Below the pieces are notes generated by a model. The model was not told the DNA's origin, made no database searches, and was given only the letters and a program-made list of their open reading frames with translations. Shown in pieces: positions 33,931-59,642 of a stretch of DNA of 64,000 bases. The stretch's first letter is position 1, and each line of letters starts with the position of its first letter. Source of the stretch: an uncultured Nitrososphaerales archaeon. Lineage in GTDB: Archaea > Thermoproteota > Nitrososphaeria > Nitrososphaerales > Nitrososphaeraceae. The position numbers and the translations under genes were made by a program. The DNA is taken from positions 32,001 through 96,000 of the forward strand of contig CAVOHZ010000003.1 in the NCBI GenBank assembly GCA_963695855.1. The letters run 5' to 3'.

Positions 33931-34013
33931 GGAAAAAGCGTCTTTTTTGTTATCTGCCTAAGCGTTTTAATAATTATAATAGCGTGGGCCTAAATAAAGT
34001 TACAGATTCGCAA

Positions 34014-34060
34014 TGGGCCTAAAGGGGTTTGAGCACTGCGTGTAATAGGGTTCAATAACC
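34014..34060 (-). repeat. att site: tRNA(CAT) 3' copy + motif B
   Basis: TGGGCCTAAAGGGGTTTGA followed by CTGCGTGTAATAGGGTTC; an extra 11-bp copy GTGGGCCTAAA at 33984-33994. Confidence 0.85.
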
Positions 34061-34347
34061 TTGAATAAAACCTTAAGAGTTTATTTATAAACAAAGTAAA
34101 ATCAAAGAACTTTAAATAATAAATCAGTCATTAAGAGAGAATGACAAGGTAAAAGAAGATGATGCATTGACTCGTTTATCTGGCTAATTATTACTTCTTT
34201 TAAGTCAAAGAATATACAACAACAGTTAGAAAGAAAACAAATGATATAATCTGTAAAAATTCTATCTATGAAAATGAGTTAAGAAGAATTTGAACCCAAT
34301 TTCTTATATTCACTGATGTATTCTTTTGTAATTGTAATTTCACTTAT

Positions 34348-35343
34348 TTATTTACATGAACTATCTATTCTTGCACATACATCAGCCACTTTGTACAAAT
34401 CTTTTATTACTCTTTTTTCACAATCTGAATTTTGATCAGGAAAATCATCAGAAGTAACACATCCAAAAAACATATCACCTCGTACTATAGGTCCAACTTC
34501 TGTATTTCTATTAAAGGTAAATGGGATTGCAAGTCTATTACTATTGCTTTTTCCTCCTTCTCCTCCTAGTTCATTTTGTACATTAACTTTTTTAATTTGA
34601 CTTTCACCTTTTACCATTGCAACAACATACATATCGTTTATGTCTTTGCTATCAAATATAGGAACATTTATTGTAATTTTTACATCTTTTGGACTTTTTT
34701 GTGTATTTGGAACAGTACCAGAGGTTTTGTAAAGTAAATTAGATTCATTATATTTTTTTAGTGTATAAAATAGTTTAACTGTATCTTTATCAGTAGAAGT
34801 TAAACCAATATTACCTTCATCACAATCATACAATGGAAGGTTAGTAGATGTTGTTGTTGTAGTAGTAACAGCATTACTAGCATTTAGTTTACCATCAAGT
34901 ACATATCCACATACATAATATTCATCATCAAACATTACTTGAGAAATATCATTACTTTTCTTGAATTTTAAATCAACGGTTAAAGAATTATCTTGTAAAT
35001 TTATATTATTATTATGATTATTTTTATTATTATCTTTTTTTAAATCTACATATATTGTTTTTCCTTCACCATTAAGATAACCAACTATTTTTAATGAATC
35101 ATGGTTTTTAATATCACTATTATTTAAATTTATTTTTGTCTTTATAATAGTGAGATCAGAAGCAGTAGTAGAAGTAGTAGCACCATTGTTGTTGTTCTTT
35201 TCATAGTCATTTTTATTTTCATAGGGTTGTGCAGTTATAGAATTAGCCTGCTGCTCAACAAATAACAATATAGAGGAAGATACTAAAATAAAAAATAATC
35301 CTAATCCAAAATAAAATTTATTTATCTTTATTTTCAAATTCAT
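34348..35343 (-). CDS. Secreted protein with two internally repeated beta-rich Cys-pair domains
   Basis: Signal/TM N-terminus; LKIVGYLNGE..YYVC..DCDEG and MYVVAMVKGE..FFGC..DCEKR. Confidence 0.7.
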   Translation of the reverse strand: MNLKIKINKFYFGLGLFFILVSSSILLFVEQQANSITAQPYENKNDYEKNNNNGATTSTTASDLTIIKTKINLNNSDIKNHDSLKIVGYLNGEGKTIYVDLKKDNNKNNHNNNINLQDNSLTVDLKFKKSNDISQVMFDDEYYVCGYVLDGKLNASNAVTTTTTTSTNLPLYDCDEGNIGLTSTDKDTVKLFYTLKKYNESNLLYKTSGTVPNTQKSPKDVKITINVPIFDSKDINDMYVVAMVKGESQIKKVNVQNELGGEGGKSNSNRLAIPFTFNRNTEVGPIVRGDMFFGCVTSDDFPDQNSDCEKRVIKDLYKVADVCARIDSSCK

Positions 35344-35999
35344 AATTCAAAATCTATTCAATAAATAATATAACGATCAAGATCAATTTCATTATAGAGA
35401 TAAGTGAATCTAATTTAACTTTTATAATTGATATATATTATTGACTTAAAATTGTGTGTATAATAGTTGTCATAGCCTGAACTAGATTTATTGATTGGGA
35501 TTATAGATACATACGAGTCCAGACTATATGATGACAACGACGACTTGGTGGTTTGCCTCTTGATTTAAGAGCGAAGTCATTTAGTGATAAATGAGGAATT
35601 TATTAATTTCTAAATTCCTTGTTTTCTATTTTGAAATTCGATAATATTTCTGATGAAATAATTTTTATTTTATTAGAAGCAACCAACCATTTACTAGTAT
35701 ATAGGTCTAATTACTCAGTAAAAAACACTAGCGATATACAAGTTTTATGACTAGTACATTTTAAGGGCTGTACTCTTCTTTAACAATCTTATGCGAAATA
35801 AAAATCTAGTCATTCTTTACGACGAAAACATTTACATATATCTTGATAAATCACTATTATCATCATCATCCTTCTTATTTTGTTATCTATATAGAATATT
35901 AAATTATTTTTAGAATAGTCCAGTGATAATTAAAACTTGATAAGATTGATTTTAAATACTTAAGAAAGTATATAAATGTGAAATAGATACAAGAGGCAA

Positions 36000-36031
36000 G
36001 TAATACCGATAGCGGTTCTAAAATATGGGTC
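36000..36031. repeat. Motif A copy 1 (no clear tRNA fragment)
   Basis: GTAATACCGATAGCGGTTCTAAAATATGGGTC. Confidence 0.8.
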
Positions 36032-36113
36032 TTAGATATGTTAATACAGAGGATATAACATTTACGGATTAACGTTATATAGAAATAATGATAAAAGTTG
36101 AATTGTACTACTT

Positions 36114-37229
36114 TCACAATTTTTTAATAGTATTTAATAATACCTTTTTCTCAACTGGTTTTATCAATATTTGTTCTTTGGCTAAACCAGGAACTATAGT
36201 TAATATTTCATCTGATATATCTAAAACAGTTATAAAAAGAATTTTAATTGTTGGGTCTATAGCTTTTATTTGTTGGTGTAATTGAAATCCATTCAAACCT
36301 TTCATTCGGATATCAAGTGTCACTAGTAAATCATCAAAATTTGAAAGGGCTTTGATATAATTCAATGCATCAGTAGAGTCTGTAAATGTAATTGTTTCAT
36401 AACCACTTTCATTTAAAAATGATTTAAAAGTAAGAAGTATTTCTGGGTCATCATCGACTAAAATAATTTTTTTGTTATTATTTTTTTGTTGAATAAAAAA
36501 TAAATCTTTTTTATTTTTAGTTTCTATAAAATCATCAGTAGAGTAACCTAAGCATTTATTCCTAAGAGCGGGTTTAATACTACTATCATCAATCAACGAC
36601 AATTTAACTCTTTTTATACTATATGTGGAATAGACAAAAGTTTCAGTTATTTTACATCCACCATTATTTATGAAATTGTAATCGTTAGCAATATTAGAAA
36701 AAGATTTTAGTATTCTATAACAATTATCTCCTATAATTATTTGATTAGCGATAGAATTAGGAGAAGAAGAAGAATTTATCTTCGAACAGAGGTTTACAGT
36801 TGACCCGAATAAATCTATCTGGCTATAATCTCCCGTTAATGCTAAATCTACAGTACCATAATCCATACTAATTCTATAGCTGAATAGAGGCAAGTTTTGC
36901 TTTGATAATTCTTGATTAACAAGATGACGGACATCTAAGATTTCCAAACCACATTCAATAACTTCTCTAAATGCTTTTTCGTTTTTATTATCAGATGTTT
37001 TAGGAAAATATAATAATAAAGAATCACCCATATTTTTAATAACTTTCCCACCATAACTTTTAACTATTTCTGATATTGAATTTATAAATTTAGAATAATA
37101 GATTCTAATATGTTCTAAATTGTCTATGGTAATTGTATTTTTAGTTGAATCTACTAAATCAATAAAAACTACACAACTCTTTACTGTATCACCAGAAAAT
37201 CTAATTTCTTTTGAAGAAAAATTTTTCAT
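36114..37229 (-). CDS. Class III adenylate cyclase + C-terminal receiver domain
   Basis: FIDLVDST, KNMGD, DLFGSTVNLCSK; REC motifs ILVDDD, LDIRM, FIT, KP. Confidence 0.9.
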   Translation of the reverse strand: MKNFSSKEIRFSGDTVKSCVVFIDLVDSTKNTITIDNLEHIRIYYSKFINSISEIVKSYGGKVIKNMGDSLLLYFPKTSDNKNEKAFREVIECGLEILDVRHLVNQELSKQNLPLFSYRISMDYGTVDLALTGDYSQIDLFGSTVNLCSKINSSSSPNSIANQIIIGDNCYRILKSFSNIANDYNFINNGGCKITETFVYSTYSIKRVKLSLIDDSSIKPALRNKCLGYSTDDFIETKNKKDLFFIQQKNNNKKIILVDDDPEILLTFKSFLNESGYETITFTDSTDALNYIKALSNFDDLLVTLDIRMKGLNGFQLHQQIKAIDPTIKILFITVLDISDEILTIVPGLAKEQILIKPVEKKVLLNTIKKL

Positions 37230-37288
37230 TTAATATTGCTCACAAAATTAAATAACTGAATGTTTTATTCTAGAATAAAAAATAAGTA

Positions 37289-37858
37289 TTAGTAGGATTT
37301 TTGAATATTATTTACAAAGCTAAGGAAGTTTTGAACTGAGTTGTTATAGTATTTTTGTCCAAGTTCTATAGATTTGTTAAAGTTTTCTATATATTCTAAT
37401 ACATAGTCATGTATTCTTCCTGTAGTATTTACTACTGTATTATTTGTAGTATTGTCGTTGGCATTATTATAAACATCTGTATATTTTTGTGGATAGATAA
37501 ATTTATTCCAATAAGATTTGTTATTGTTGAATGTATTATCTATAAATTTAGAAAATACTGATTGATAGGTAATAAGTATATTCTTTTGTAAATCTACGTA
37601 ATTGTCTGAGATTGAATGAATTACGTTAATGGTTTGTTGTTGATATTTGTTTGCAGTATCTATACTTTTTTGAAGATTATAATTATTTGTATTTTGAGAT
37701 TCATTGATAGCATTAGTAACCTTATTTGTAGTATCTTGAATATTTGATGTTGACTTTTCTACCTGTCGTTTTTGTTGGTTTGCAAAGTTCTCTGCTTCTT
37801 CTTTTATATAGTTACTTGGTTTTTTATTTTCTTCTTTTAAATTTGTCATATTAAACAA
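37289..37858 (-). CDS. Phasin-like family protein (copy 5), 59 bp upstream of the cyclase
   Basis: ISDNYVDLQKNILITYQS..YWNKFIYPQKY; FNKSIELGQKYYN. Confidence 0.6.
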   Translation of the reverse strand: MFNMTNLKEENKKPSNYIKEEAENFANQQKRQVEKSTSNIQDTTNKVTNAINESQNTNNYNLQKSIDTANKYQQQTINVIHSISDNYVDLQKNILITYQSVFSKFIDNTFNNNKSYWNKFIYPQKYTDVYNNANDNTTNNTVVNTTGRIHDYVLEYIENFNKSIELGQKYYNNSVQNFLSFVNNIQKSY

Positions 37859-38496
37859 AGTTACGTGAGCTTAGGTACCTTATAAATTATAATAAAATAG
37901 AAAAATAAAAGTAAGAATTAGATAATATTATACTAAAATATGTATAAAATAGATATTAGTTCATATGTTTTATATTACTAACAAGTTAACTGTTTATTTT
38001 AGCAAAAAATGGAAATTATCTTCTAGTCCACTTACAATAAGCCCTTTTTGGATGACAAATTCTAAAGAGAATTTAATTAAATTAAATATACTTTTTGTGA
38101 TATAATAGAACTATTAGCAAATGATTCATTTTCTTTTCCAAACTTAAGGTAAATTCATAAATTTAACAGAACTCTCTCAATTGACTATAATATAGTTATA
38201 GTAAATCTTATGAATCGTGATATATCTAATCAAAGATTGTAATATTCTCGTCTAAAGATTTCATATCAATAAATTTTAAATTTTATCTGAATAAGAAATG
38301 TAGTAACTACTAGTAGTCTGTCAATTGTAACGAAAAAACCGTAAGTAGTTGAATAAGTTGTAGAACTGAATCATTTATAACACAATTCTTTGGTATTCAA
38401 GCTATTAATAATAAAAAGAAATCCTATAATAAGGAGTATTAGTCTGACTACCTTTTTTTATACTTGTTTTCAAAATAGATGAATCCGACAAAACTG

Positions 38497-38576
38497 TGGG
38501 CACATCGGGATTAGAATCCTCCATGTAGTAGGGTTCTATTACATACTGTTTAGCTTTTATTATTAGAAACTTAATT
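38497..38576 (-). repeat. tRNA 3'-like fragment (Ile/Val-like) + motif B
   Basis: TGGGCACATCGGGATTAGAATCC then ATGTAGTAGGGTTC...TTTAGCTTTTATTAT.AGAAACTTAATT; aligns without gaps to the first 40 bp at 34014. Confidence 0.75.
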
Positions 38577-38881
38577 AAAATATAAAAATCAAAATCCGTT
38601 TAAAAGTTTGTCATTTATCTTACTGAGATTTATTATGGAGAGCATCTTTTTGAATTAATATGAACATCATTTTATAAAAAGAAATCCCTAATTTGGATGC
38701 CTCAAAATCTATATTTTTTATTGTTTCATTATTTGATGAAGATAGTATAAATTCATCAATAATTTTTTTGAATTTAAAATCATCATGGTGTTGGAACACA
38801 AGCCTAGTCTATCAATATAGTTATTATTAGTTTCTTAGAAATGTTAATGACAGGCATGCATAACGTTTGACTAATAGTATT

Positions 38882-39079
38882 CTAGAAAGACCAAAGATAA
38901 ATGAATACTATATAAGAAATCGCATACCATAATATACTATTTACTATTAGAGTAAATAAAAAACCAAAATAATATGTCATAATAATTCCAGTAATAGTAC
39001 CACCTATCAGATAAGGGATTTGTCGTTTTATTATTGACTTTAAAATTGCATCCAAATTACAACAATAAATACACAACAT
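38882..39079 (-). CDS. Small 2-TM membrane protein (possibly truncated)
   Basis: IPYLIGGTITGIIMTYYFGFLFTLIVNSILWYAISY hydrophobic hairpin. Confidence 0.5.
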   Translation of the reverse strand: MLCIYCCNLDAILKSIIKRQIPYLIGGTITGIIMTYYFGFLFTLIVNSILWYAISYIVFIYLWSF

Positions 39080-39313
39080 CCTATAATAGTAGCAGTAGCA
39101 GCCCAGTTTTGCAGTCTTTTTCTTTTTTTGATAAACTTAATCTTCCTTCATGAATCTCTATAAAAATTCTAAAACGGAGAGAATTAACATAAGTATAAAA
39201 TAAACTCTGAAATAACTTATTATATGTCACAAGCTGAATGGTTTACGACTTATTTACAATACGAAAATCTTAAAGATATGTTAAGTGTTATACTCTATAC
39301 ATCATAATCCTTT

Positions 39314-40515
39314 ATGACTATAACCCCATTACTTTAGGTAATACCTACATAGTTGGAGCAGATTTTATCATTAATTTTGATAATTCATAGAAAATATCCT
39401 TCTCCCTGTTATTGAATCTGAATTCTATCTCTTTTAGATATACATGAAAATACTGTTTAGGTACTCCCCTGTAATGATACAACCATGTCTTGGCATAACT
39501 CCAGAATCCTTCAATTCTATTAATATGGGTATCTTCTCTTACATATTCATCTCTTCCATGTGCAACGACTTGATGTTTTCCAATCATATTCAACATTGCA
39601 TATGCAGTATGGTCATCAGAATAGTACAACGATCCTTTCTTGGTATATTGTTTTATCAAGGGAATAAGTGTCTCATGTTTTCTATCAGATACTGGAAATG
39701 TAATAACAATTCCATTTCTCTTGTAGATACCAAATACCAGATTTTTGTGCTCAATTACACCCCATCCTCTCTTGCCACCTTTTCTATAACCACCAAATAA
39801 CGCTTCATCAATTTCAATCTCACCAGATAACTTTAATTCATGTAGTTGTTGTAGCGATTTATCATATATCGTTTGTCTAAATAATCGAAATGTTCTTTCT
39901 ATTGTTGATAGATCACATGATACATAAAATCTAATTCTATATGCAGGTACTCCTAATGTAAATAGATAAAGTAAGTGTATGATATTGCTAAGCGATGTTC
40001 GTATCTGTCCGAGATATGTACCTGTAAATTCACTAAAATTATATCTGCAACGTTTACAGCCATACCTATTTGATTTCAGATAATATAGAAGTCTATACCT
40101 ACATCTAGGACATATTCTTTTTCCATTCCATCTAAGATTACGAAAATATATACTACTTTTCTTATCGCTTGATGCTAGGTCTATTGGATCATATTTACGC
40201 ACAAATATGTATAAAATAACATATCATGTGTTTATTTTTTGCTCCAAATGTACAGGTATTACCTTACTTTATAATATTACATATCAAAATAAAGAAATAC
40301 TGTTTGTCCACACAGGAATAGTTGGAGGCATTATTTCTCATTATTATGTAATTCAAGATAAACCAAATAAGAGGTATATTGAATTAAATAAAATCACAGG
40401 AGACTTCAATTTTATAGATACTATTGGTAATAATACTCAATCAATTTATATTCCAATAGTAAAATTGATAAAATCTACACTTAAGTTTCCGATAGATTCT
40501 GTGGATGAAGATTAA
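39314..40515 (+). pseudogene. Small hypothetical gene interrupted by IS1595 at codon 8
   Basis: Removing the IS and one TSD gives MTITPLLYNITYQNKEILFVHTG...DED*. Confidence 0.75.
39337..40263 (-). mobile_element. Intact IS1595-family element, 927 bp; transposase 39345-40202
   Basis: 24-bp imperfect IRs GGTAATACCT-N6-TTGGAGCA; 8-bp TSD TTACTTTA (39329-39336, 40264-40271); CPRC..CKRC ribbon, EIDE, YSDD, HINRIEGFWS, EIEFRFN. Confidence 0.95.
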
Positions 40516-40678
40516 TGTACATACTTGACAAAAGAGATTTGGCATTTATTAATAACGGCGAGTAATTACCGTCAAACTTTCAAGAAAGAATTTTTTCACA
40601 ACAAATTTAGTTCCCACTACTACATTAGAGGGATTGGTGTCAGGGTCATCATTATCACATTTTAATTTCATTACAACA

Positions 40679-41020
40679 TCATTTCTTTAAAAAATCTATT
40701 GTAGATTTAGTATCTTGAAAGATTTTTGATTCTTTTAATATAAGATTATTGAAATCAGATGAAATATCAAGAGGAGTATTGTTAAGGGTGATTATACATT
40801 TGATACCAGCCTTGTTTGCTGCTTCTACTCCCAAAGGACCGTTTTCTACTACTATGCATTCAGATGGTTTTAGATTGATTTTCTGTAATGCTTTAACAAA
40901 TGGTGTAGAATGTGGTTTCCCCTCATCTATATCATCAGCAGAGATTAGAATATCAAAATTTTTCAATCCAATCAATTTATCAATAGTTGTTTCTATCTCA
41001 TTCTTTTCTCTGACACTCAA
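40679..41020 (-). pseudogene. HAD-family phosphatase, 5'-truncated
   Basis: GKPHSTPF, ECIVVENGPLGVEAANKAG; N-terminal DxD motif absent. Confidence 0.75.
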
Positions 41021-41224
41021 AAATCAATACTATACAACAATTATATATTTAACCGTATACAGTACACAAAATTTGATAATTGTTTCATCTATTGATCTAA
41101 ATAAGATAGTAAATTCAATATTTATTCTGTTTACTGTTAAATATTTATTTATTAGGTTTATTTATCTTACATCTTTTTAATTATCTTTGTTGAAAATGAA
41201 TAAAATAAAGCTTTTTCCTATAAG

Positions 41225-41574
41225 TCAACTTAATAACTTTAACACATTGCTAATAATTTGTGCATGATCTGCTTCTACTTCTGTAGTAATAAGCATAAAT
41301 GCTCATCATCTAATGGAATAGTAATTCGTTTAATTTTTTCATATTCTGTCATTGAATATTTTCCTTTTCCTGTTTTTGGAGATAAGAACTTTCTCAATCC
41401 CCATCCTTCTAAAGCTTGTAAATTTGATTTTCTTGTTTCTTCATTAGTTAGGATATTTTTTACTCCTTCTTTTTGACCACCATGTTTTATATTTCCAGAT
41501 ACACCACATATTCATGCAAATCTTACTTTAGAATCCATCTGTAAAATAGATCTACATAAATTATCATAGTCCAT
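41225..41574 (-). pseudogene. DUF6659-like protein pseudogene
   Basis: ILQMDSKVRFA*..GGQKEGV.N.L..EE..KSNLQAL..WGLR...GKGKYSMTEYEKIKRITIPL. Confidence 0.65.
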
Positions 41575-41641
41575 ATATTAAATATTCAAAAATACAAATA
41601 TTAATAGTTTTTAGATACTTATTAATTTAGCGAATACACAA

Positions 41642-41687
41642 CGGGCCCGTCGGGAGTAACACCGATAGCGGTGCTAAAATAAGAGTC
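41642..41687 (-). repeat. tRNA-Arg-like 3' end + motif A (copy 2)
   Basis: CGGGCCCGTCGGGA (reverse complement T CCCGA CGGGCCC G) + GTAACACCGATAGCGGTGCTAAAATAAGAGTC. Confidence 0.85.
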
Positions 41688-41856
41688 CAATTTTATATAA
41701 TATATATGTAAATTTAAGATTATATTGTATGTTTATAGTTATAGAAATTAGAATTCTAAATAAAATAGAATAAAACTCGAATATAATAGTGATTGCAAAA
41801 TGTTATAGAAAATAGTTATCTCCGTTTATAGCCAATCGCTAAAAAGGAATTTGAAT

Positions 41857-42501
41857 TTATTGTATTATCAAAACAGGTTTACTAATATGATTCATTATTT
41901 TTCTGACATCACTAAATAATGAGCTAAACCATGAATCTATATGATAAGTTAACATAACGACCAAATCATAGCTATTATTATTAATTTCATTCACTATTTC
42001 GTCAACTACATTACCAGTTAGAAATTTATAAGAAATTTTATTTTGACATCCAGCTTCTTGACATTTCTTTATTTTTTCTTCCATAGCATCTATTACATCA
42101 CCTTTGATATTTCTATGAAACTCTTTTTGATTATCCTTTTCTGATTTCTCATATGAGCCTTCTAAGGAAACATTTCCAAATTTTTCAAAATCGTGTAATA
42201 TACGAAGTATAATTAATTCTGCTCCAGTGGAATTGGATAAAGAGACAGCATAATTAAGTGCTTTATTTGATATATCTTTTCCATCATCAGTAACTAGTAT
42301 TTTCTTAAAAGAAGGAAGGTTATCTTTTGAAATTGAATAATCTTGTAATTCCCTGGATTTATTTCCTAATTGTGATTGTTGTTCTTCTTGTTCTATTTCT
42401 GGTGTAACACTTCCGTCAGGATGAATTGATTCACTTACTTCCATATCTAAAAGATTTTCTTTAGCATCTGAAGATATAGAAGGAGCTTTATCACTACTCA
42501 T
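41857..42501 (-). CDS. Universal stress protein (UspA domain)
   Basis: FKKILVTDDG..S.KAL.YA; G...DEI; YDLVVM; KPVLII. Confidence 0.9.
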   Translation of the reverse strand: MSSDKAPSISSDAKENLLDMEVSESIHPDGSVTPEIEQEEQQSQLGNKSRELQDYSISKDNLPSFKKILVTDDGKDISNKALNYAVSLSNSTGAELIILRILHDFEKFGNVSLEGSYEKSEKDNQKEFHRNIKGDVIDAMEEKIKKCQEAGCQNKISYKFLTGNVVDEIVNEINNNSYDLVVMLTYHIDSWFSSLFSDVRKIMNHISKPVLIIQ

Positions 42502-42960
42502 AATATAATGGTTGATTACAAATATATAACTATATTTTAATTCATAAAAATATAAATCCTAATTATTTTATAATACAAGACAGATCATTGCAATATGGGT
42601 AACTGTATACGTAATTATCAAAGTTACAGAAATTAGTATAAAATTTAATAAGCTAAGCAAAATGTTAAAATAACAATTTTTAAATGAAAAATCTAGTCTA
42701 TCAAAAAATGAATAAATTATCATACTATTTTTATTATGTTCATTAGGAAGTAACAATTTTTTTCACATTATACAATTATGAAAATAAATTTTGCAAAAGA
42801 TTGAAATAGATGATTAGGAACCAAATGCCATTGTAATTAAATTAAATCTTATTATCATTGTAACTATTTAATATAAATTACTAACCATCTTCTCATTCAG
42901 GTGAATTGGCTCTTTAAAAGACATAAAGAGGTGTGTGTATAGATAATTGTTATTTGTTAT

Positions 42961-43497
42961 TTGGGGAAAAAAAATAATATAAGTAATAATAGAATTTTCA
43001 ATAGATTTCTTACTAATTTTTACAAGAAATATAGAGAAACTATTTTAATGAATAAGGATTTACTTATTGCTGGGACATTTGGATTTTTAGCTAGTGCTGT
43101 TATAGCTGAACTATATGCGATTTATTCTCCTAATGACGTATTAACTTCTACAGTAACAGTATTGGTTGGATTTATAATATACAAGATAATTTTTATAATT
43201 CTTTTTCACATCGACAACAGACAAAAATATACCGATAAATTCACTAGCCAGATTAATTTCAATATTCTAAAACAAATAATAAAGAAGATGGTATTTGCTT
43301 GGTCTATATTTGACATTGTTAACAATCTATCACGATGGATAATACTATTTGAATTATTATTAACAGGATTCAGACCCTTTGAAGCAGCTATGATATCTTC
43401 TATAACTGCTTCTTCTATATCTTATTTAGCAATAAATATAATCTCAAGACGTATCAAAATCTTCTCATCATTAAAGAAGAAGAAAAGACCAAAATGA
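42961..43497 (+). CDS. 4-TM membrane protein
   Basis: Four hydrophobic segments and a basic C-terminus. Confidence 0.65.
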   Translation: MGKKNNISNNRIFNRFLTNFYKKYRETILMNKDLLIAGTFGFLASAVIAELYAIYSPNDVLTSTVTVLVGFIIYKIIFIILFHIDNRQKYTDKFTSQINFNILKQIIKKMVFAWSIFDIVNNLSRWIILFELLLTGFRPFEAAMISSITASSISYLAINIISRRIKIFSSLKKKKRPK

Positions 43498-43969
43498 AAA
43501 TAATGCAAAAGATTTCTTATAATTTAAAATAAAACATTCCCAAGATGTCTAGAACTTATACAATAAACAAAGTGTATCTACACAGAATGATTATGCGCTA
43601 GATACTATTACATTAGTTAATATACGCAGGTAACTTATGTACAATTATATCACCAAAAGAGGAAAAAAATACAACTAAATTTAGGACAGACAACACCTTT
43701 TATTATTTAGAAATATATTTTAAAATTAATTTCTGCATTGAATCTAACTTTAAATATTATGCTTTAAATTAACTATATACTATATAATTCATTTATATTA
43801 TTTAATTCTACTTTATGTTATGTCCTATATACACAAAAGCATCCGAAACAACGGATGGCCATACATAACATTTAAAAAATTAAATATTAATAAAATTCGC
43901 TCTAATAGAAAATATATCAATAATATTTAGGAATTAAAAAATAATGTAACAATATTGTTACATTATTTT

Positions 43970-44392
43970 CTATTCAACTAGATTTCCGCCGTGAATTTTT
44001 AATAATCTTTGTAGAATCTCAGCAGCAATATATCCTTTAACAGTTTGTTTGAGATCAAGACCCGATAATTCTTGGACAATTGTAGCAAATTTTGGATGTT
44101 TTGCCTTGATTTCTGATGCTTTTGCCTTGATTTCTTCTTCTGTCATATATTCCTCTAACGGTGAACGACTCTGACCAGTTCTTTTTTCCTCAACTAGATT
44201 TCTGGCATGTGATTTTAGTATTCTCTGTAAAACTCCCGCTACAAAATAAGCTCTGAAAGTTTCTTTCAGATCAAGATCAGGAATTTCTTCAACAATTGTA
44301 GCATACTTTGGATGATTTGTTTTAAATTCTGATGCTTTTGACTTAAATTCTTCTCTTGTCATTCTAATATCTTCTAAAATGGTTGTCATCAT
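43970..44392 (-). CDS. Hypothetical protein made of two ~58-aa tandem repeats
   Basis: MTREEFKSKASEFKTNHPKYATIVEEIPDLDLK... / MTEEEIKAKASEIKAKHPKFATIVQELSGLDLK... Confidence 0.8.
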   Translation of the reverse strand: MMTTILEDIRMTREEFKSKASEFKTNHPKYATIVEEIPDLDLKETFRAYFVAGVLQRILKSHARNLVEEKRTGQSRSPLEEYMTEEEIKAKASEIKAKHPKFATIVQELSGLDLKQTVKGYIAAEILQRLLKIHGGNLVE

Positions 44393-45185
44393 AATGTGTA
44401 TATAATAATGGATATATAACTATTTGTATCTCTGGAATAGATATATTTATATATATTGAAGAATCGAAGAAACATATTGCATAGTATTGCAAAACATTAC
44501 AATATATGTCAATAACAAAGTATTAAATTTACAAATCTATACTTGCATACGATTTTATATAACCCAATTAAAATACTATTATTCATATATTTAGCTAATC
44601 TGAATGACTTTAGTAATACTATGTGAGGTATAAACCGACCCTGGCGAAGAATGGTAATCAGGCATTAATACAACACAAAAAAGTTCTCCATTCTTGAACA
44701 CTTAAATAGCTGTAATGGCATATTATAGTACCACTAAAATCTCTATAGCGTATTTTTGCGGCACTAACCTTAATCAATCTGATGCGGAGAGAAAAAAAGA
44801 AGTATATAACATTAACCTATGGAGAATCTTTATGCCCATTTGGTGGATTACTTAATACATTTGTCTCCTAGATGACTAGATGTTGTCTCCTTTTTTTAAT
44901 ATATTTGAACGGATTTAAAGAAACATTAAATGGACCAACACCTACTGCGCCTCCAATATTAATTTCTCTTGCTGTACTTTCAGTTGATGCAACTTCGCCA
45001 ATTATTAAATCATACCCACAAACACGACAAAAGGATACTAAATTCACATGAAGAAGTATAACAGTAAATCTAAAAAAATTTAAGTTTAATAATTTTTGTG
45101 ATAATACATACCGAACTTAAGGAAGCATTATTTGAATAATTCAATTATTGTTTGAAAATCCAAAGAGGTGGGCCATAGAATACTT

Positions 45186-45231
45186 CGGGTCCGTCGGGAG
45201 TAATACCGATAGCGATGTGAAAATAAGAGTC
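45186..45231 (-). repeat. Second tRNA-Arg-like 3' end + motif A (copy 3)
   Basis: CGGGTCCGTCGGGA + GTAATACCGATAGCGATGTGAAAATAAGAGTC. Confidence 0.85.
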
Positions 45232-45282
45232 TTCTGTTAAGTAAATAAAATAATATTTATGAATTCTTTTATGATAGTATAC

Positions 45283-46233
45283 TTATCTTAACAATTTGTT
45301 TGAAATAAATTCATGTAATTGTGAATCAGACATATTCTTTTTTGCTTGTGCAAAGGTTTTAGCATCTTCTCCTACTGTATATCTGAACAAATATTCTGAA
45401 GAATTTGAAATATTTTTAATTGCTTCAAGTATTACAGTAGCAACTTCTTTTGGTGATGGAGCATTATTCATAGCAGAATAATAATGAGATAGAAATGTAT
45501 CGATAGTATTGGAATAATATGAAGAATTATTTTTCTTAGTATCATTATTAGAATAATTAACTTTTAGTTCTTCTTTCTGTTCATCTTTCAATAGAGGTTC
45601 TTGTAATTTATTGTCAATTTGATTTGGAAATTTAATATTTGGTACAAAATTAGTATTGATAACACCTGGTTCAATAAGGATTACTTTAATTCCATATGGC
45701 TGAAGCTCATAGGATATAGAGTCACTTAATCCTTCTAATGCAAATTTTGTACTTACATATATGCATTCTGCAGGTATTCCTACTACGCCTGCAAGAGAAG
45801 TTACATTTATGATTATCCCATTTTTTTGTTTTCTCATAGCGGGCAAAGTTTCTTTAATAGTTCTCATTGCTCCAAAGAGATTTGTTTCGAACTGTTTCTT
45901 TGCTTCGTCTATAGATATCTCTTCCAAAGCACCAAATAAACCATATCCGGCATTATTTATCAAAATGTCAATTTTCTTTTTTTCATCAAGTATTTTGTGT
46001 ATCGCATTTCTTACTGAATCATCATTATCAACATCCATGGATAAAACTTTTAAAGGAAGATTCTCATTATTTGCAATTTTTTCGATTTTATCTCCCTTAA
46101 GTGTATCTCGCATTGTAGCATATGTATAAAACCCATTTCTTGCAAGAAATAATGAAGTTTCAAATCCTATTCCAGTTGAACTACCGGTAACTACTGCAAT
46201 ACTCTGTTGTTTTTCCATTCTAATCTTAGGCAA
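45283..46233 (-). CDS. Short-chain dehydrogenase/reductase
   Basis: VTGSSTGIG, NNAG, YVSTK, EPG. Confidence 0.92.
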   Translation of the reverse strand: MPKIRMEKQQSIAVVTGSSTGIGFETSLFLARNGFYTYATMRDTLKGDKIEKIANNENLPLKVLSMDVDNDDSVRNAIHKILDEKKKIDILINNAGYGLFGALEEISIDEAKKQFETNLFGAMRTIKETLPAMRKQKNGIIINVTSLAGVVGIPAECIYVSTKFALEGLSDSISYELQPYGIKVILIEPGVINTNFVPNIKFPNQIDNKLQEPLLKDEQKEELKVNYSNNDTKKNNSSYYSNTIDTFLSHYYSAMNNAPSPKEVATVILEAIKNISNSSEYLFRYTVGEDAKTFAQAKKNMSDSQLHEFISNKLLR

Positions 46234-46442
46234 TTACAAAATATACAAAAATATAATTCTATAGTTGACTATTACAATAGATTTATGGTAATTATTGTTA
46301 TTTTTTAAAAATAGTTCAAATTTATTATTAGTAGCAATTAAACGCACTATGTATCTTGACTTTAATCTTTTAATTCTTCTAAATATTTCATAATACTATA
46401 ATCGTGTTCCACCTTAATAGTATGGTTCATCCACATATTCAT

Positions 46443-46522
46443 GTAGTTCATCGGGAGTTAGAATCTGCACGTAGTAAGGTTCTACAACATTGTATTTAGC
46501 TTTTATTATGAGAAACTTAATT
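46443..46522 (-). repeat. Degenerate tRNA 3'-like fragment + motif B (paralog of 38497-38576)
   Basis: CATCGGGA.TTAGAATCTGCACGTAGTAAGGTTC...TTTAGCTTTTATTATGAGAAACTTAATT. Confidence 0.75.
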
Positions 46523-46566
46523 TTAATTATTTTTCAATTATTCACAAAGTATAGGAACTTGAAATG

Positions 46567-46611
46567 TGCCGCGGAGGAGGTAATACCGATAGAGGTGCAA
46601 AAATACGAGTC
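46567..46611 (-). repeat. tRNA (GCCGCGG acceptor, Met/Phe-like) 3' end + motif A (copy 4)
   Basis: TGCCGCGGAGGAG (reverse complement CTCCT CCGCGGC A) + GTAATACCGATAGAGGTGCAAAAATACGAGTC. Confidence 0.8.
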
Positions 46612-46783
46612 GAATAAGGAGGATAATATTTATGATTATTTATAATTGAGTTATTTGAAATATTAATAATTCAAAATTCATAGATAATATTAATTAAGAT
46701 TTATGGAAAATATACAAGAAGAAGAAACTAAAAAGACTAAAATTGAAAGTGAATAATATTAATTTAGAAATTGAATTAATATG

Positions 46784-48400
46784 TTAATCTGCAATTGGCA
46801 ATGTAAATCTAAATGTTGCCCCCTTACCATCCAAATTATTTTCTGCCCAAATTTTACCACTATATGCTTCTATAATATTCTTACAAATATATAGTCCCAA
46901 TCCTGTTCCTGTACTAGAATCGCCAGTTGTAAACTTTGAAAATAATTTGGGTAATACTTCTTTTGAAATACCCGCTCCAGTATCCTTAACACTTACAATG
47001 GCTTGTTCTATTCCTTCTTCTTTTTTCATTTTATCTACAATAACAAATATTGTTTGATTGTTATACTTAGTAGTAAATTTTATAGCGTTATCTACAAGAT
47101 TGCGAATTACTTGAGCTAATCTATCTCTATCTGATTCTACAATAATATCATTAACATATTTGAAATCATAACAAATTTTTATCGTTTGTTGTTTTAATTC
47201 CTTTTTCACATATTCCTTTAAAACTTCAGATATCAAAACATTAAGATTTAATTTTTCTTTTTTAAGCATTAAAGATTGACCTTCTATTTTTGTAACATCC
47301 AACAGGTTGTCACTAAGCCGTTTTAGTCTGTATGCATTTCTCATAATAATGTCTAACAATTCATGTTGTTCTTTATCTTTAACCTTTGAATAGATAATAT
47401 CTGTTAATCCTAGTATAGGCTGAATAGGAGTTCTCAATTCATGTGCAGCTATATTAATAAATTCTGACTTCATTATTTCAGATTCCTTTACTTTTTCATA
47501 TTGTTGGCTAAGCATCTCATTGCTTTCTCTTAATTTAATATTATAGTGAATACTTGATAAGGCTAATCCAATAATATTGATAAAATAACTTGAATCTTTT
47601 AAGACATGAGCAATATTATGTGCAGTGTCAAAGTGTTGTGACGAGTATGACATTATTATTTGTGCAAAAACGTCGAATACGAGGGAAATAACTATGCTAA
47701 TATAGAGAACATCTCTATTTTTATAAATTCTATTCTTATAGAAATAATATAAGGAAAATAATAATAATGCTAATGGAAAAAGTTCATAAGGTCTATGTAT
47801 AGGAATATTGTCAATCACAGAAAAAGGAAAAATAACATAAAGTGAGCTTATAGTTACAATAGAAACAAATAAAGTAATTGCTATTAAGTAAAGTAAAATC
47901 GGTTTTGATAATATACTTTCATTATTCTGGTGAGAGAATACTTGTTGTCCTTGTTGTTTTTGTTGTTGTTTACTTGAATTAACAGATAAAAAAGAATTAT
48001 ATTTAAAAATTGCTATAGCAAACATTGCACTAAGAAATAATCTTCCAGCAAACCAAGTCTGTGGAATAAAATATTTCAAGAATAAAATATTATCCATATT
48101 GAGCAAAGAAATTGTAACATGTAACAAATCAATTAAAGCATTAACTAGAAAACCAATGCCAATGAATAGACTAAATTTATCATCAAATGCAAGAGCTCTA
48201 GAAATATAATAGAATGCAAGTATTCCAGCAAAAATTGTTCCAAATAGTTCTATATAAAAATGATGTATAGGTGATGACACCCATAAATATGGGTTGGCAG
48301 ATATCACAGCAATTACTGAAAGAGAAATTGAAGGAATTAAAATATATTTTAATATATGACTCGTCTTATCATTAGTCTTTAAAAGTAAATTTAGTGGCAA
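46784..48400 (-). CDS. Membrane sensor histidine kinase with MASE3-like multi-TM input domain
   Basis: H..IELF, GFL..ALIDLLH, PQTWFAGR in the TM region; AAHELRTP, NLVDNAIKF, DTGAGI, GTGLGL. Confidence 0.9.
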   Translation of the reverse strand: MPLNLLLKTNDKTSHILKYILIPSISLSVIAVISANPYLWVSSPIHHFYIELFGTIFAGILAFYYISRALAFDDKFSLFIGIGFLVNALIDLLHVTISLLNMDNILFLKYFIPQTWFAGRLFLSAMFAIAIFKYNSFLSVNSSKQQQKQQGQQVFSHQNNESILSKPILLYLIAITLFVSIVTISSLYVIFPFSVIDNIPIHRPYELFPLALLLFSLYYFYKNRIYKNRDVLYISIVISLVFDVFAQIIMSYSSQHFDTAHNIAHVLKDSSYFINIIGLALSSIHYNIKLRESNEMLSQQYEKVKESEIMKSEFINIAAHELRTPIQPILGLTDIIYSKVKDKEQHELLDIIMRNAYRLKRLSDNLLDVTKIEGQSLMLKKEKLNLNVLISEVLKEYVKKELKQQTIKICYDFKYVNDIIVESDRDRLAQVIRNLVDNAIKFTTKYNNQTIFVIVDKMKKEEGIEQAIVSVKDTGAGISKEVLPKLFSKFTTGDSSTGTGLGLYICKNIIEAYSGKIWAENNLDGKGATFRFTLPIAD

Positions 48401-48507
48401 TAGATTAATCTATTCCTTTATATTTTTGTTAATATATTTATATGAACGAAAAAAATAGACATGGAGTTAATTATTAATATATTATTCAATACTGAATGCA
48501 ATTTTTA

Positions 48508-49676
48508 TTAATTTAATAATCTATTTACAGTATTTGTAAATAGCTTTCTATCAACAGGCTTTCTCATTATTTGTTCTTTTGATATACCAGGAACTACACT
48601 CAACAATTCGTCTAATATATCCAAAGCTGTTACAAACATAATCTTAATTGTTGGGTCTATAGCTTTTATTTGCTGATGTAATTGAATTCCATTCAAATCT
48701 TTCATTTTGATATCAAGTATTAATAATAAATCATTAAAATTTGAGAGGTCTTTGATATAATTCAATGCATTAGAAGGGTCTGTAAAAGAAATTATTTCAT
48801 AACCATTATCCTTTAAAAATGATTCAAAAGTAAAAAGTATATCCGGTTCATCATCAACTAAAATGATTCTTCTTTTGTTTTGTTATTGTTATTGTTATTG
48901 TTATTGTTATTGTTATTGTTATTGTTTTTTTTATGAAAAAAAGATGATTCTTTTTCTTTACTTTTAGTTTCTATAAAATCCTCAACAGGGGAACAGAACA
49001 ATTTCTTGCTAAAAGAAGAATTTATAGTACTAATATCATCAATCGACAATGATTTGTTAACTTTTTTTATACTGTATGTAGAGTATCTAAATTTTTCATT
49101 TATCTTATATTCACCATTATTTATAAAATTATAATTGTTAGCAATATTAGAAAAAGATTTTAATATCCTATAACAATTGTCTCCAATAATTATCTCATTA
49201 GGAATAGACAGTGAAGAAGAATTAATCTCTGAACAAATATTTATAGTTGAACCAAATAAATCTATCTGGCTATAATCACCAACTAAAGCTAAATCTAGAA
49301 GACCATAATCCATACTAATTCTATAGCTAAATGGGGGAAGATGCTGCTTGGACAATTCTTGATTAACAACATATCGCTCATCTAAGATTTTCAACCCGCA
49401 TTCAATCACTTCTCTAAAAGCGTTTTCGTTTTTAGTATCAGATGCCTTTGGAAAATAGAATAATAAACAATCACCAATATTTTTAATAACTTTCCCACCA
49501 TAATTTTTAACTATTTCTGATATTGAATTTATAAATTTAGAATAATAGATTCTAATATGTTCTGAATTGTCTATGGTAATTGTATTTTGAGTAGAATCTA
49601 CCAAATCAATAAAAACTACACAACTCTTTATTGAATCCCCTGAAAATCTTATTTGTTTTGAAGAAAAGTTTTTCAT
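48508..49676 (-). pseudogene. Adenylate cyclase-receiver paralog split by a 1-nt deletion at the end of a poly-Asn microsatellite
   Basis: Highly similar to 36114-37229; REC start RIILVDDEPD is in the neighbouring frame at ~48870. Confidence 0.85.
48878..48926. repeat. Hexamer microsatellite, about 7 AACAAT units on the minus strand (poly-Asn linker)
   Basis: TTATTG tandem run read directly. Confidence 0.9.
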
Positions 49677-49843
49677 TTACAGTTTTGCTCCTTAAAATTA
49701 TTAATTAAAAATGGAATTTATATTTTATTATTATTAGTATAAGGTATTAGATTTAATAAAATCTTTTTTTTCTTATCTTAAAATAATACCAACATTATTG
49801 GGCTAGGTTAAATATTAAAACCTAGTTAGTCGGTCTTCCATTG

Positions 49844-50470
49844 TTAATGACTAGTAGTAGTATTTCCCTCTTTATTTTGGCTATTGACTGATTGTACTAC
49901 TGATGTTATATAATCAGTATTTGTTTTTGTCAAAACCTTCACATTATCACGTGTTTGTTCAAGTGCTGTGTTATATACTTTCATATTTGATGCTAGAGTG
50001 TTATTTATAAGATTAGTGGCATTTAACAGGTAACTCGTAAAGTTATTTACCATTACCGCATTATTCTCAGCAATTCTTTGTGGATTAAAAAAATCCCATA
50101 ATCTATTGAAGTTTACATTACTATTATTATCTGCTTGTTGTGATTGAAAAGAGCTTACTACTTGTTTTTGTGCTTCAATAAAGTCAGAAGCAATATCTTT
50201 TACAGTTTGGATAGTTTTTTCTTGATATTCAGCAATACGTTGTGTATATTTTGGAATTTCCCGACTAGCTTCATCTGTACTTCTTTTTATATTATGTAGA
50301 GTGTTATCTAGAGTCTTGTTTATTGCATCTTGTTGTTGATTTAAGGTGTTATTTGTTCTTTCATTGAAATTATTATTGTCTTTGTTAAATTTAGTTGTAT
50401 TTTTTTCATTAAATTCTGGTTCATTTACAGCTATATTTTCGTTTATTTTTACTTCTTTTTTTGCTGACAT
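49844..50470 (-). CDS. Phasin-like family protein (copy 6), upstream of the second cyclase
   Basis: DEASREIPKYTQRIAEYQE.TIQT.KDIASDFIEAQK; start set at ATG 50470 by alignment with copy 7. Confidence 0.65.
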   Translation of the reverse strand: MSAKKEVKINENIAVNEPEFNEKNTTKFNKDNNNFNERTNNTLNQQQDAINKTLDNTLHNIKRSTDEASREIPKYTQRIAEYQEKTIQTVKDIASDFIEAQKQVVSSFQSQQADNNSNVNFNRLWDFFNPQRIAENNAVMVNNFTSYLLNATNLINNTLASNMKVYNTALEQTRDNVKVLTKTNTDYITSVVQSVNSQNKEGNTTTSH

Positions 50471-50742
50471 AATTATAGTTACATTACTAATGTTATATAA
50501 ACTCATGTAATGATGTCTTTTTAATAGTCATATTTACATAGGTATATATAATTTATTTATTTATTTATATAATTGAAGGTAATATAATTTATAATACAGC
50601 AATAAAAAGCAGAATCATGTAATTCTTACTATTTGATTCATACGATTCAGACATCTTATAAATTTAATAATTCATGATAAAACGCTGGTAGGTAAGTAAG
50701 TATTGATATTGATATAAAAGATGAAATATGTCTAGCATGGAC

Positions 50743-50773
50743 TAATGCTTATAGTGGTACTAAAATAAGAGTC
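50743..50773. repeat. Motif A copy 5 (degenerate)
   Basis: TAATGCTTATAGTGGTACTAAAATAAGAGTC, 26/31 match to the consensus. Confidence 0.75.
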
Positions 50774-50903
50774 TAAGGTATGGTAATAAAGAAGATAATA
50801 CCTAGGATTTACTTTTCATATTTTTAAAATAGATATTAATGTACAGTTACTATAAAAATTAATATTGTGTATGTTTTTCAGTATGTCGAAAAATATTAAA
50901 TTA

Positions 50904-51170
50904 TTAGTCATTTTTGATGGTAGTAGTAGCTTGTAATAATTCGCCCATTTCATTATGCATTTTGAGATAGTTTAGTCCTTTTTCTGTAGTCTTGAATGTT
51001 TGAGTCACATCAAGATATTCTATTAGATTGTTTTCTGTCAAAACAGAAAGATATTCCTTTAATTGTGCATAACTTAGAAAAGCTTTGTACATAATTTTTG
51101 TCTTTGTTGCTCTTCCATTTGCAGCGTCCAGTATATTACCCACTATTTCCGTTCTACTTCTATATTTCAT
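50904..51170 (-). CDS. Small archaeal winged-helix regulator
   Basis: YRSRTEIV..IL..A...TKTKIMYKAFLSYAQLKEYL..L.E..LI; TTEKG. Confidence 0.9.
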   Translation of the reverse strand: MKYRSRTEIVGNILDAANGRATKTKIMYKAFLSYAQLKEYLSVLTENNLIEYLDVTQTFKTTEKGLNYLKMHNEMGELLQATTTIKND

Positions 51171-57327: not shown

Positions 57328-58243
57328 GAGCCTATCCCAAAAATAGATAGGAATATAGCTCATTGATTTCTTTATCATATCTAATAATGTTTGAGTAAGA
57401 ATAAAAAGTATGGTAGAACAATTATACGTATTGCAGGCGATCTGTGGAATGAAATTAAAAATATTTTACCTGTTGAAAAACCAGACAATACAATAGGTCG
57501 TCCAATTGTTCCATATCGAAAAGTATTTGATGGCATCATGTTTATCCTGAGAACTGGATGTCAGTGGAAATTGTTACCCAAAGACTATGGTTCTGGTTCA
57601 ACATGTCACAGAAGATTTCAGGAATGGAGGCAATCAGGTATCTTTGATAAATTATGCATCAGATTACTAAAATTATATGATGACAAGAAGGGAATTAAGT
57701 GGAACTGGCAATCACTTGACAGCATCTCGATAAAATCACCTTTAGGGGGGGCATTGACAGGTCATAATCCTACTGATAGAAGCAAATTAGGAACCAAAAG
57801 ACATATTTTAACAGATAAAGAAGGAATTCCCCTTTCCACTGTTATAACATCTGCAAATACTCACGATGTTACCGCTGTCATTGATACAGTTAACAGCATG
57901 GTTATCAAAAGACCGTTTTCAAAATCAACAACAAAATACAGAAACAAGAACAAGAAGAAAAAACAGAATCTATGTCTTGATAAAGCATATCATTCCAAAG
58001 AAGTAGAACAAGAAGTTATCAAAAGAGGATACATTCCACATATACGACATAGAAGACAAGAAAAGAAACTCAACAAGAACCATCCTGCAAGAAGATGGGT
58101 GGTAGAGGAGAGAACAAATTGATGACATAACAGATTCAGAAAGTTATTTACAAGATATGAAAAGAAGGATGAGAACTATCTCGGTCTTGTACAATTGGCT
58201 AATAGCATAATTGTTTATAGGAGGTTAATTTTGGGATAGGCTT
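57328..58243 (+). mobile_element. IS5-family element (IS1031-like), 916 bp, transposase damaged near the C-terminus
   Basis: IRs (G/A)AGCCTATCCCAAAA; TTA duplicated on both sides; LRTGCQW, TCHRRFQEW, GTKRH, DKAY, RRWVVE followed by a frameshift and stops. Confidence 0.92.
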
Positions 58244-59468: not shown

Positions 59469-59568
59469 ACTAGTTTTTCCCTCTCCTTTTTCTGGTTGTC
59501 TGAGTTGATATCACAACTACTACTGTCTATTTTATTGTACGAATTAGTATTTAATCCCAATTGGTCAG

Positions 59569-59642
59569 TGGGCCTAAAGGGGTTTGAACCCTTGACCTAC
59601 CGGTTATGAGCCGGTCGCTCTGCCAGGCTAAGCTATAGGCCC
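59569..59642 (-). tRNA. tRNA with CAT anticodon, probably tRNA-Ile2
   Basis: GGGCCTATAGCTTAGCCTGGCAGAGCGACCGGCTCATAACCGGTAGGTCAAGGGTTCAAACCCCTTTAGGCCCA folds as a cloverleaf; the GGGCC acceptor fits Ile2 rather than initiator Met. Confidence 0.9.

Follow-up and report, generated by a model that had tools for sequence, protein, structure and literature searches.

How a gene island beside a transfer RNA (tRNA) gene came to be divided by eight short units of common build is the question raised by the locus studied here, which lies in a stretch of 64,000 nucleotides (nt) from an uncultured Nitrososphaerales archaeon (the window; G000:C3:32001-96000, where G000 is the analysed genome, of 3.55 Mb, 31% G+C and 11 contigs, and labels such as C8 stand for contigs). 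A first-pass annotation had regarded these units as attachment (att)-like sites that carry one of two motifs, A or B, most of them fused to the 3′ ends of different tRNAs. The most probable explanation, to which we give a probability of roughly 0.6, is that they would be the att-site scars of accreted and decayed integrative elements whose tyrosine integrases target tRNA 3′ ends. The finding is more general than the window alone could show: a genus-wide family of att-type units marks and subdivides tRNA-anchored islands, and active cassette mobility is a possibility.

The island is delimited by the tRNA-Met(CAU) gene at 59568..59642 (- strand; called by ARAGORN and, with 69.4 bits, by Rfam), which is both its target and its right border, and by a distal copy of the 3′ end of this gene at 34014..34032 (- strand), the crossover core that forms the left border. 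As had been proposed, this copy matches the local tRNA-Met (59569-59587) in 19 of 19 nt, and the 25.5 kb from 34014 to 59568 are bounded by 19-nt direct repeats. The relatives compared include G012, G014 (95% identical), G017 (with an empty site) and G019 (for the tRNA-Lys trailer). Because in G017 the homologue of 33452-34032 directly adjoins tRNA-Met, with a 21-nt overlap counted once, the segment 34014-59568 corresponds to an insertion into the 3′ end of this gene. A partial copy of the same end, the 11 nt GTGGGCCTAAA at 33984..33994 (- strand, 11 of 11 nt matching), is also present at the empty site of G017 and is therefore older than the island and outside it. An integrase pseudogene at 59205..59468 (- strand), 100 nt downstream of tRNA-Met, has only ~85 codons of its N-terminal part left, codon 14 being an in-frame stop, and is 36-37% identical to the integrases found beside tRNA-Arg(TCG) and tRNA-Lys (tblastn E = 1e-12 and 7e-11); no further PF00589 match was obtained in the window. 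In G012, tRNA-Met is occupied by a separate element of 16.4 kb, which has an intact integrase next to the tRNA, a single B unit at the far end and 0 inner units, and whose junction between B unit and Met core is the same as that of the outermost unit of the window. This is a simple element of the family, and its one far-end B unit shows that the B unit is the far-end arm. G014 lacks the island together with 31811-34013, with 855 unrelated bases in their place. The empty site, the truncated integrase and a junction at C8:291626, described below, all support the proposal that the att-like units mark the distal end of an island inserted in a tRNA gene.

All eight units are present, on one strand and in the orientation of tRNA-Met at 59568-59642 (-), and they are described here as read on that strand (the - strand of the window), with the copies of motifs A and B given on the + strand. 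Motif A occurs at 36000, 41656, 45200 and 46580, always on the + strand and with up to 3 mismatches, when 0 copies were expected in 100 shuffles. A fifth copy at 50742 has 6 mismatches, yet it belongs to the family according to its profile (nhmmer E = 9.7e-17). Motif B occurs at 34036, 38519 and 46465, also all on the + strand, and the 0 copies expected by chance come from a circular test, as the consensus was derived from those same three copies; independent backing is provided by ~25 more copies with the same flanks throughout the genome. The copies of motif A lie 83, 170, 52, 173 and 131 nt past the stop of a minus-strand gene, as the earlier reading had noted.

Unit 1 (34033..34100, -) is a B-type arm with motif B at 34036-34053, joined to the Met core; by eye it shares 22 of 28 nt with the canonical B unit, and it was missed by the genome-wide nhmmer profile scans. 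Unit 2 (35996..36078, -) is of the A type, with motif A at 36000-36031 and no tRNA core (10 mismatches in 14 nt against the Lys core), and has a flank class in common with C8:301738. Unit 3 (38470..38581, -), of the B type, shows a TATA-like box, a hairpin and an ATG at 38524 that opens a short open reading frame (sORF) of 39 codons, with a Lys-like but diverged core. Unit 4 (41621..41744, -) combines an A-type arm with a tRNA-Lys(UUU) core (14 of 14 nt) and the first 11 nt of the trailer or P′ arm, and unit 5 (45159..45292, -) an A-type arm with a Lys core (1 mismatch in 14 nt) and a P′-like arm; the downstream flank of unit 5 is duplicated at 96.5% identity, and the end of the duplicate falls within motif A. 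Unit 6 (46443..46527, -) is a B-type unit with motif B at 46465-46482, in which GTG replaces ATG, whereas unit 7 (46561..46671, -) is an A-type unit followed by CTCCTCCGCGGCA, for which no matching tRNA was found. The A-then-B tandem formed by units 7 and 6 also occurs at C10:913k and C8:275k. Finally, unit 8 (50710..50843, -) is a degenerate A-type unit, with 6 mismatches in motif A and no tRNA core.

The identity of the tRNA pieces attached to these units departs in part from what had been claimed. Instead of six differing tRNA ends, only those of Met (one unit) and Lys (two units) could be verified; the remaining units comprise two with diverged Lys-like cores, one matching no tRNA and two without a core (36000 and 50743). 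The ends taken as Arg-like are those of tRNA-Lys(UUU): 41631-41657 agrees in 26 of 27 nt with the gene at G000:C8:2734-2821, over its 3′ end and 11 nt of its trailer, and the unit at 45200 does so in 15 of 16. This gene folds with a 14-nt intron (Rfam, 56.8 bits; ARAGORN anticodon 'tta'), and its spliced loop, CTTTTAA, is in our own reading that of Lys(UUU), which differs from the ARAGORN call. The 3′ end CGGGCCCG follows the same T-arm sequence in all 20 loci of relatives in which the T arm was located by a pattern search (19 of them full-length genes), and the tRNA-Lys gene of G000 also ends in CGGGCCCG after that sequence. As the pieces at 41656 and 45200 match tRNA-Lys and CGGGCCCG ends the gene across relatives, the supposed Arg ends are Lys ends. 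The last 8 nt of tRNA-Lys (CGGGCCCG) are palindromic, which might permit insertion in either direction, and at five loci of the relatives (L019, L023, L030, L039 and L041) a shortened, inverted motif A lies directly after the tRNA-Lys 3′ end, of which L041 has only a fragment. At the far end of its contig, C8:601262-601342 (-) holds the last 14 nt of tRNA-Lys plus 68 nt that are plain trailer in G019, and the tRNA-Lys array may in fact terminate there on its distal side.

The other assignments could not be upheld. CCGCGGC/A at 46566, described as a GCCGCGG/A end, matches 0 of the 39 tRNA candidates of the genome (37 from ARAGORN and 34 from Rfam, an incomplete list), and none of the 11 genomic sites of CCGCGGCA is within a tRNA. 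The ends at 38497 and 46443 that were regarded as Ile/Val-like give best ungapped matches of 18/26 and 15/26, with no significant tRNA match, and correspond to the conserved sORF-like body of the B unit. By eye, this body is similar to the tRNA-Lys T loop and stem (GGATTCTACTCCCGA versus GGGTTCAACTCCCGA). ARAGORN also calls a tRNA-Arg(CCG) of 98 nt at 60640-60737 (+), without an Rfam tRNA match (E up to 1 in the window, and in the genome scan), which may reflect either an unusual intron or a false call.

Profile searches extend the family to 89 units in G000, 57 of the A type and 32 of the B type. The B profile was built without nine of the 34 pattern matches, which are an unrelated repeat resembling an insertion sequence (IS); its nine near-identical copies start with TCAACGACTTTAGACTG, match the B-unit pattern falsely and are probably an IS end (sites listed are C8:2213, C8:174227, C8:318516, C8:552676, C1:86360, C6:104117, C9:4895 and C10:1404107). 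Motif A is present in 47 copies at up to 7 mismatches, 46 of them intergenic, from which the A profile was derived, and is the conserved heart of a unit of ~110-150 nt. Along the A unit, a TATA-like box (AATCTTAAATATTATCT or AAAAGCTAAATACA) is followed after ~25 nt by TTAGACTCTTATTTTTGCACCGCTATCGGTATTAC, and the conserved block amounts to 37 nt (ATTAGACTCTTATTTTTGCACCGCTATCGGTATTAC, the reverse complement of motif A). The Lys core TCCCGACGGGCCCG, at up to 2 mismatches, follows motif A in 18 of the 47 copies. In the B unit, a box of this kind precedes the hairpin GTAGTAG-AACC-CTACTAC (7 bp), which is followed by an ATG with a reading frame; motif B is this hairpin and ATG seen from the opposite strand. 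Among 19 pattern matches, 13 sORFs of 9-70 codons (ten of 12-18) stand behind the conserved promoter or hairpin. Frames of 18 amino acids (aa) ending in EPYC, such as MEDSTPDQLAENVGEPYC, are near-identical in the B units at C2:121181, C8:28947, C8:194338 and C10:1754694. In intact copies, the arm is followed by the crossover core, a copy of the tRNA 3′ end, and then by a second arm with a GGGTTCATATAC-like box, which in complete elements precedes the integrase gene.

This architecture also raises the question of whether the units could serve the host, as promoters with leaders, small RNAs or peptides of 12-18 aa (MEDSTPDQLAENVGEPYC) for a stress regulon made up of the cyclase-receiver, phasin-like and USP genes. 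The fixed distance of the TATA-like box, the 13 sORFs with a shared start, the recurrent gene families adjoining units and the fact that most genes of the window are co-directional with the units are all compatible with such a role. Genome-wide, however, orientation to the neighbouring genes is random, the tRNA-Lys 3′ end with its trailer accounts for part of the stretch that would encode the peptide, and the codon that would serve as a start in the A type varies (TTA, ATA, TTG or ATC). No Rfam match was found at the units at E up to 1, RNA folding of four of the eight units was no better than that of shuffles (z = -0.02, 0.82, -0.68 and 1.16), and units 4 and 5, folded as DNA on either strand, had z-scores of -0.18 to -0.62 and formed no long hairpin. 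As the folds do not exceed those of shuffles, neither a structured RNA nor attC-type sites are supported, and altogether a host function appears very improbable. Three narrower ideas were discarded: a long protein beginning MEDSTPD, as the frames have only 9-70 codons; a split-tRNA or tRNA-like gene in the A unit, as the 5′ acceptor strand is absent; and a promoter or terminator of neighbour genes, as orientation is random (19 of 47 downstream genes co-directional).

Integrases and tRNA pieces accompany the units in other parts of the genome. Intact integrases are found beside tRNA-Lys, tRNA-Arg(TCG) and tRNA-Val(TAC), and the one at tRNA-Lys (448 aa, C8:2892-4238) starts 70 nt after the tRNA. 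At C8:291626, the Lys core comes after an A unit and is itself followed by the tRNA-Lys trailer and an integrase (80% identical), an order that, judged from the sequence, is that of an attP-like junction. For the N-terminal integrase fragments elsewhere, most upstream sequences inspected by eye contain a GGGTTCATATAC-like box together with a tRNA 3′ fragment. There is also a second att arm family, in which CATGTCAAATTTGTTTCAC is joined to the 3′-terminal sequence of the C8:91508 tRNA (ATCCCACTGGCCCCA) and then to an integrase fragment (C8:126906, C10:1364785, C3:358134 and C8:107551). The island at tRNA-Arg(GCG) shows a perfect 17-nt repeat 24.5 kb away, beside a B-like arm, and has inner A units. 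Overall, the B type is joined to Met (in the window and in G012) and to Arg-GCG (C6:89861), and the A type to Lys and to an Arg-like core at C10:644043, which matches a partial tRNA 3 kb upstream, with no integrase in the 3-kb segment between them. Because the same arms are joined to the cores of several tRNAs, the target switching proposed in the first-pass annotation holds for the genome, but not in the form of six tRNA ends within the window.

The units are moreover arranged in arrays. Among adjacent pairs less than 15 kb apart, 60 of 67 have the same orientation and 7 the opposite one, and the median spacing is 1.7 kb. Six of the arrays follow a tRNA on its downstream side, and 37 of their 38 units share its orientation: the arrays at Lys(UUU) (C8:2.7 kb; 13 of 14 units), Met in the window (all seven profile-found units), Val(GAC) (C10:908 kb; 10 of 10), Arg(GCG) (C6:114 kb; 3 of 3), a weak tRNA with a pseudo-integrase (C2:111 kb; 3 of 3) and a partial Arg-like tRNA (C10:640 kb; its only unit). 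Downstream of tRNA-Pro(CGG), G012 has 16-18 co-oriented units within 30 kb, and no tRNA-type integrase was detected there. As co-oriented singles (60 versus 7 pairs), the units do not behave like miniature inverted-repeat transposable elements (MITEs) or IS ends, target duplications not having been searched systematically.

Each of the 24 other genomes examined from the genus contains motif A at up to 3 mismatches (1 to 85 copies per genome), and 0 of the 16 genomes examined from other genera of the order contain it. With one genome per GTDB species, the exact 27-nt pattern retrieved 84 stretches, all in records titled Nitrososphaeraceae or Nitrososphaerales. Among 79 distinct copies, conservation drops sharply on both sides of ATTAGACTC...GGTATTACTCC, with a weak AAATA signal ~30 nt upstream; only the flanks of these copies are informative, as the motif positions were fixed by the search. 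The Lys core follows 20 of the 79 copies in other species. In relatives, tRNA-Lys(UUU) lies frequently near contig ends (by reading of the locus ranges, ~15 of 21 full-length matches within ~1 kb), which fits with repeats downstream of tRNA-Lys breaking the assemblies. No account of the motif or of the arrays was found in open-access text, supplements not being covered.

Such dispersed repeats could also be passive. Former att sites would now be nothing but ~100 nt of homology, mosaics would be made by homologous recombination, IS and deletions, and the conservation of the motif would reflect recent spread and not function. The breakpoints found on both sides of motif A and inside it, the inverted array pair at C8:296-297 kb, which fits recombination between inverted repeats, and the many IS copies in the islands agree with this possibility. 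On the other hand, a motif A that is near-invariant in 24 of 24 species next to sequence that decays is hard to explain without selection or site-specific activity, and intact integrases persist beside matching cores, so that passivity is to be regarded as improbable, if less so than a host function.

A further question is whether the units bound mobile modules. In the comparison of G000 with G014, 10 of 60 synteny breaks lie up to 50 nt from a unit (3.9 expected; maximum of 12 in 2000 random draws), and 17 of 109 ends of internal duplications within array regions lie up to 100 nt from one (6.6% expected; low-copy duplications of at least 93% identity, with contig C9 left out as likely redundant). 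This is a ~2.4-fold enrichment at units, but most breakpoints are elsewhere. As both counts exceed expectation and most breaks lie off the units, these are preferred breakpoints and not the rule. Around motif A, left and right flank classes reassort: one left class, with four copies, pairs with three right classes, and the right flanks of two copies match nothing. The USP gene at 41841-42594, located between unit 4 and a segment that in C6 directly follows an A unit, is 98.8% identical to C6:101940-102697, with no unit within 5 kb of the C6 copy. Near-identical pieces such as this gene have moved without a unit at the donor site. No clean one-module insertion or deletion between G000 and G014 was found, the best candidate being a 1.9-kb extra piece in G014 at C8:266215. 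Metagenome contigs (four runs) on 33001-53000 gave 14 unit-to-unit joints among the 15 listed, with sides of 18-41 nt all within repeats; as these come from other unit copies, they are uninformative about gain or loss of modules. The proposed movement of single integrase-less modules therefore finds no support, given the unclean candidate, the breaks off units and the USP donor without a unit.

These data bear directly on an active cassette platform, in which integrase-less modules with one A or B unit each would be excised as circles and re-inserted in trans at any unit, by an integrase encoded elsewhere (for example, that of tRNA-Lys), so that arrays would resemble those of integron or lox-type exchange. 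The short median spacing, the 60 of 67 co-oriented pairs, the lack of integrases in most modules, the 30-kb array of G012, the integrase-less 3-kb segment that separates a partial Arg-like tRNA from an A unit whose core matches it, the reassortment of flanks with enriched breakpoints at units, and the strong conservation across species of motif A but not of its flanks all point in this direction. Nevertheless, neither a circular junction nor the clean presence or absence of a module bounded by two units was found, most breakpoints are off the units, near-identical genes moved between arrays without a donor unit, gene orientation relative to the units is random (19 of 47 co-directional downstream) and the metagenome joints prove nothing. 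We thus hold this mechanism to be unlikely, but the first of the alternatives to be considered. A tRNA-anchored version of it, with modules of 1-5 kb that bring their own outward promoter and a few integrases acting in trans, is equally tentative; if true, the islands at the tRNA genes for Lys, Met, Arg, Val and Pro would draw on a common pool of signalling and stress genes and rearrange it, as an archaeal integron analogue made from phage-type att sites.

The scars of accreted and decayed elements remain the preferred explanation, and several observations weigh against it too. Only three of the eight units of the window have a verified tRNA core, and 51 of the 89 units of the genome lack an assigned anchor tRNA. 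The largest array (17 units at C8:250-296 kb) faces away from the tRNA closest to it (Gly-CCC), an orientation that, as a guess, an inversion between the units at ~250 and 297 kb would mend. The integrases match PF00589 weakly (20.2 bits for the tRNA-Lys one, below the cut-off of 27.1), a search of IMG/VR with the exact 27-nt motif A pattern gave 0 matches, with no free circular or viral copy found, and the breakpoints away from units (50/60 and 92/109) are a clear majority. The C8:266215 candidate has one end at the edge of motif A and no clean core-to-core junction. Lastly, repeated insertion at tRNA-Met should have left inner Met cores; as the Met island holds inner cores of Lys and not of Met, an extra step, either unit-by-unit or homologous exchange, has to be assumed.

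According to the accretion model, one composite island (34014-59568) would have entered tRNA-Met(CAU), its outer end being the B-type arm with the 19-nt Met core, and its own integrase would have decayed to a stump. The seven inner units, of which two are of the tRNA-Lys(UUU) type, would be secondary sites or scars, and accretion together with exchange with the genome's other islands, not insertion into different tRNAs at this locus, probably brought them here. The integrase would act on the units, the TATA-like box may be an outward promoter reading across the core, and unit-by-unit recombination could have built the array. A winged-helix (HTH_45) gene of 88 aa at 50904..51170 (-; PF14947, E = 2.9e-19), directly upstream of unit 8, belongs to a family with six members beside units, and its product may be a candidate unit-binding or directionality factor.

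Among known systems, a close likeness is with the ICEs (integrative and conjugative elements) and the CIMEs (cis-mobilizable elements) of streptococci, which form tandem or accreted elements at tRNA genes and include integrase-less segments flanked by att sites. Insertion at a tRNA 3′ end, inner att sites in direct orientation, integrase-less segments and composite islands are common to both. The arrays described here differ in having up to 13-17 units per array at a median spacing of 1.7 kb, two arm types common to islands at several tRNAs and inner Lys cores unlike the tRNA of the island, and in belonging to an archaeon, their mobilisation being putative. Reviews in this field are PMC5704250 and PMC7563491. 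For Thaumarchaeota, passages of Krupovic et al. 2019 (PMC6563490) give tRNA genes as the main targets of integrated elements (39 integrations, 57%) and a median of 17 bp for att repeats, to be compared with the 19 and 17 nt found here. The same passages describe cryptic elements with tyrosine integrases and the possibility of arrays by site re-use (PMC6563490), and contain neither a conserved 32-nt arm motif nor multi-unit arrays; the name Nitrosocosmicus is absent from the whole paper. Passages of a 2026 paper on Nitrosocosmicus speak of islands flanked by integrases, with nothing on repeats (PMC13245735).

Archaeal integrons are already in print (bioRxiv 10.1101/2022.02.06.479319). The co-oriented short modules, the repeated recombination-type site and, in the tRNA-Lys array, the integrase at one end are similar to those of integrons. 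In the defined sense, however, the integron-like system put forward by the first-pass annotation is not borne out: an NCBIfam scan of the tRNA-Lys integrase, the one integrase scanned, gave a weak XerA-type match (20.6 bits for a cut-off of 220) and no integron-integrase model of the IntI type, and units 4 and 5 form no attC-like hairpin. Genes are not co-oriented with the sites (19/47), the anchors are tRNAs and not attI, and the units bear a promoter-like box, unlike integrons, whose cassettes are mostly promoterless. Partitioned integrases of the SSV type leave int(N) fragments beside the tRNA genes of Sulfolobus. The N-terminal integrase fragments next to tRNA fragments described above are reminiscent of these archaeal tRNA-targeting elements (see also PMC7253208 and PMC8371274). 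In our case, ~70 nt separate the att core from the integrase start downstream of it, and integration leaves full-length integrases intact; as the core lies outside the integrase frame, 70 nt before its start, integration does not split the gene. A last parallel is the Pcirc promoter of ICEclc, which faces outward at the far end of the element, so that the integrase is driven only once the element has become circular. Similarly, the TATA-like box of the arm points across the core toward the integrase side, with the differences that the promoter is deduced from its sequence and that in arrays it would read into the next module.

Other genes of the island show its later history. An IS1595-family transposase at 39345..40202 (-) is a later insertion, polymorphic among related strains, as one soil metagenome contig skips this element (39328-40264) with 5 nt fitting both sides; an IS4/IS5-family transposase (57391..58122, +) lies near the truncated integrase. 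A 472-aa protein encoded at 54118-55536 (+), with an N-terminal TIR domain and six NHL repeats coded by 141-nt tandem DNA repeats, is possibly an island-borne defence gene. Two paralogous modules at 36114-37858 and 48508-50506 (-), with 78-85% DNA identity, encode a phasin-like protein and an adenylate/guanylate cyclase-receiver, the latter frame being split in two in the second module. Across the genome, 10 members of the cyclase family and 8 of the phasin-like family are found near units.

Even as scars, the units have a practical value, as the 32-nt motif marks island borders in the fragmented assemblies of this group and the units explain the assembly breaks after tRNA-Lys. Integrase and site also form a defined pair that might be tested for genetic work in a lineage without such tools. 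If the units were active, they would be a main route for these soil- and skin-associated ammonia oxidisers to gain, stack and reshuffle accessory genes, which in G000 concern the expanded cyclase-receiver, phasin-like, USP and kinase families.

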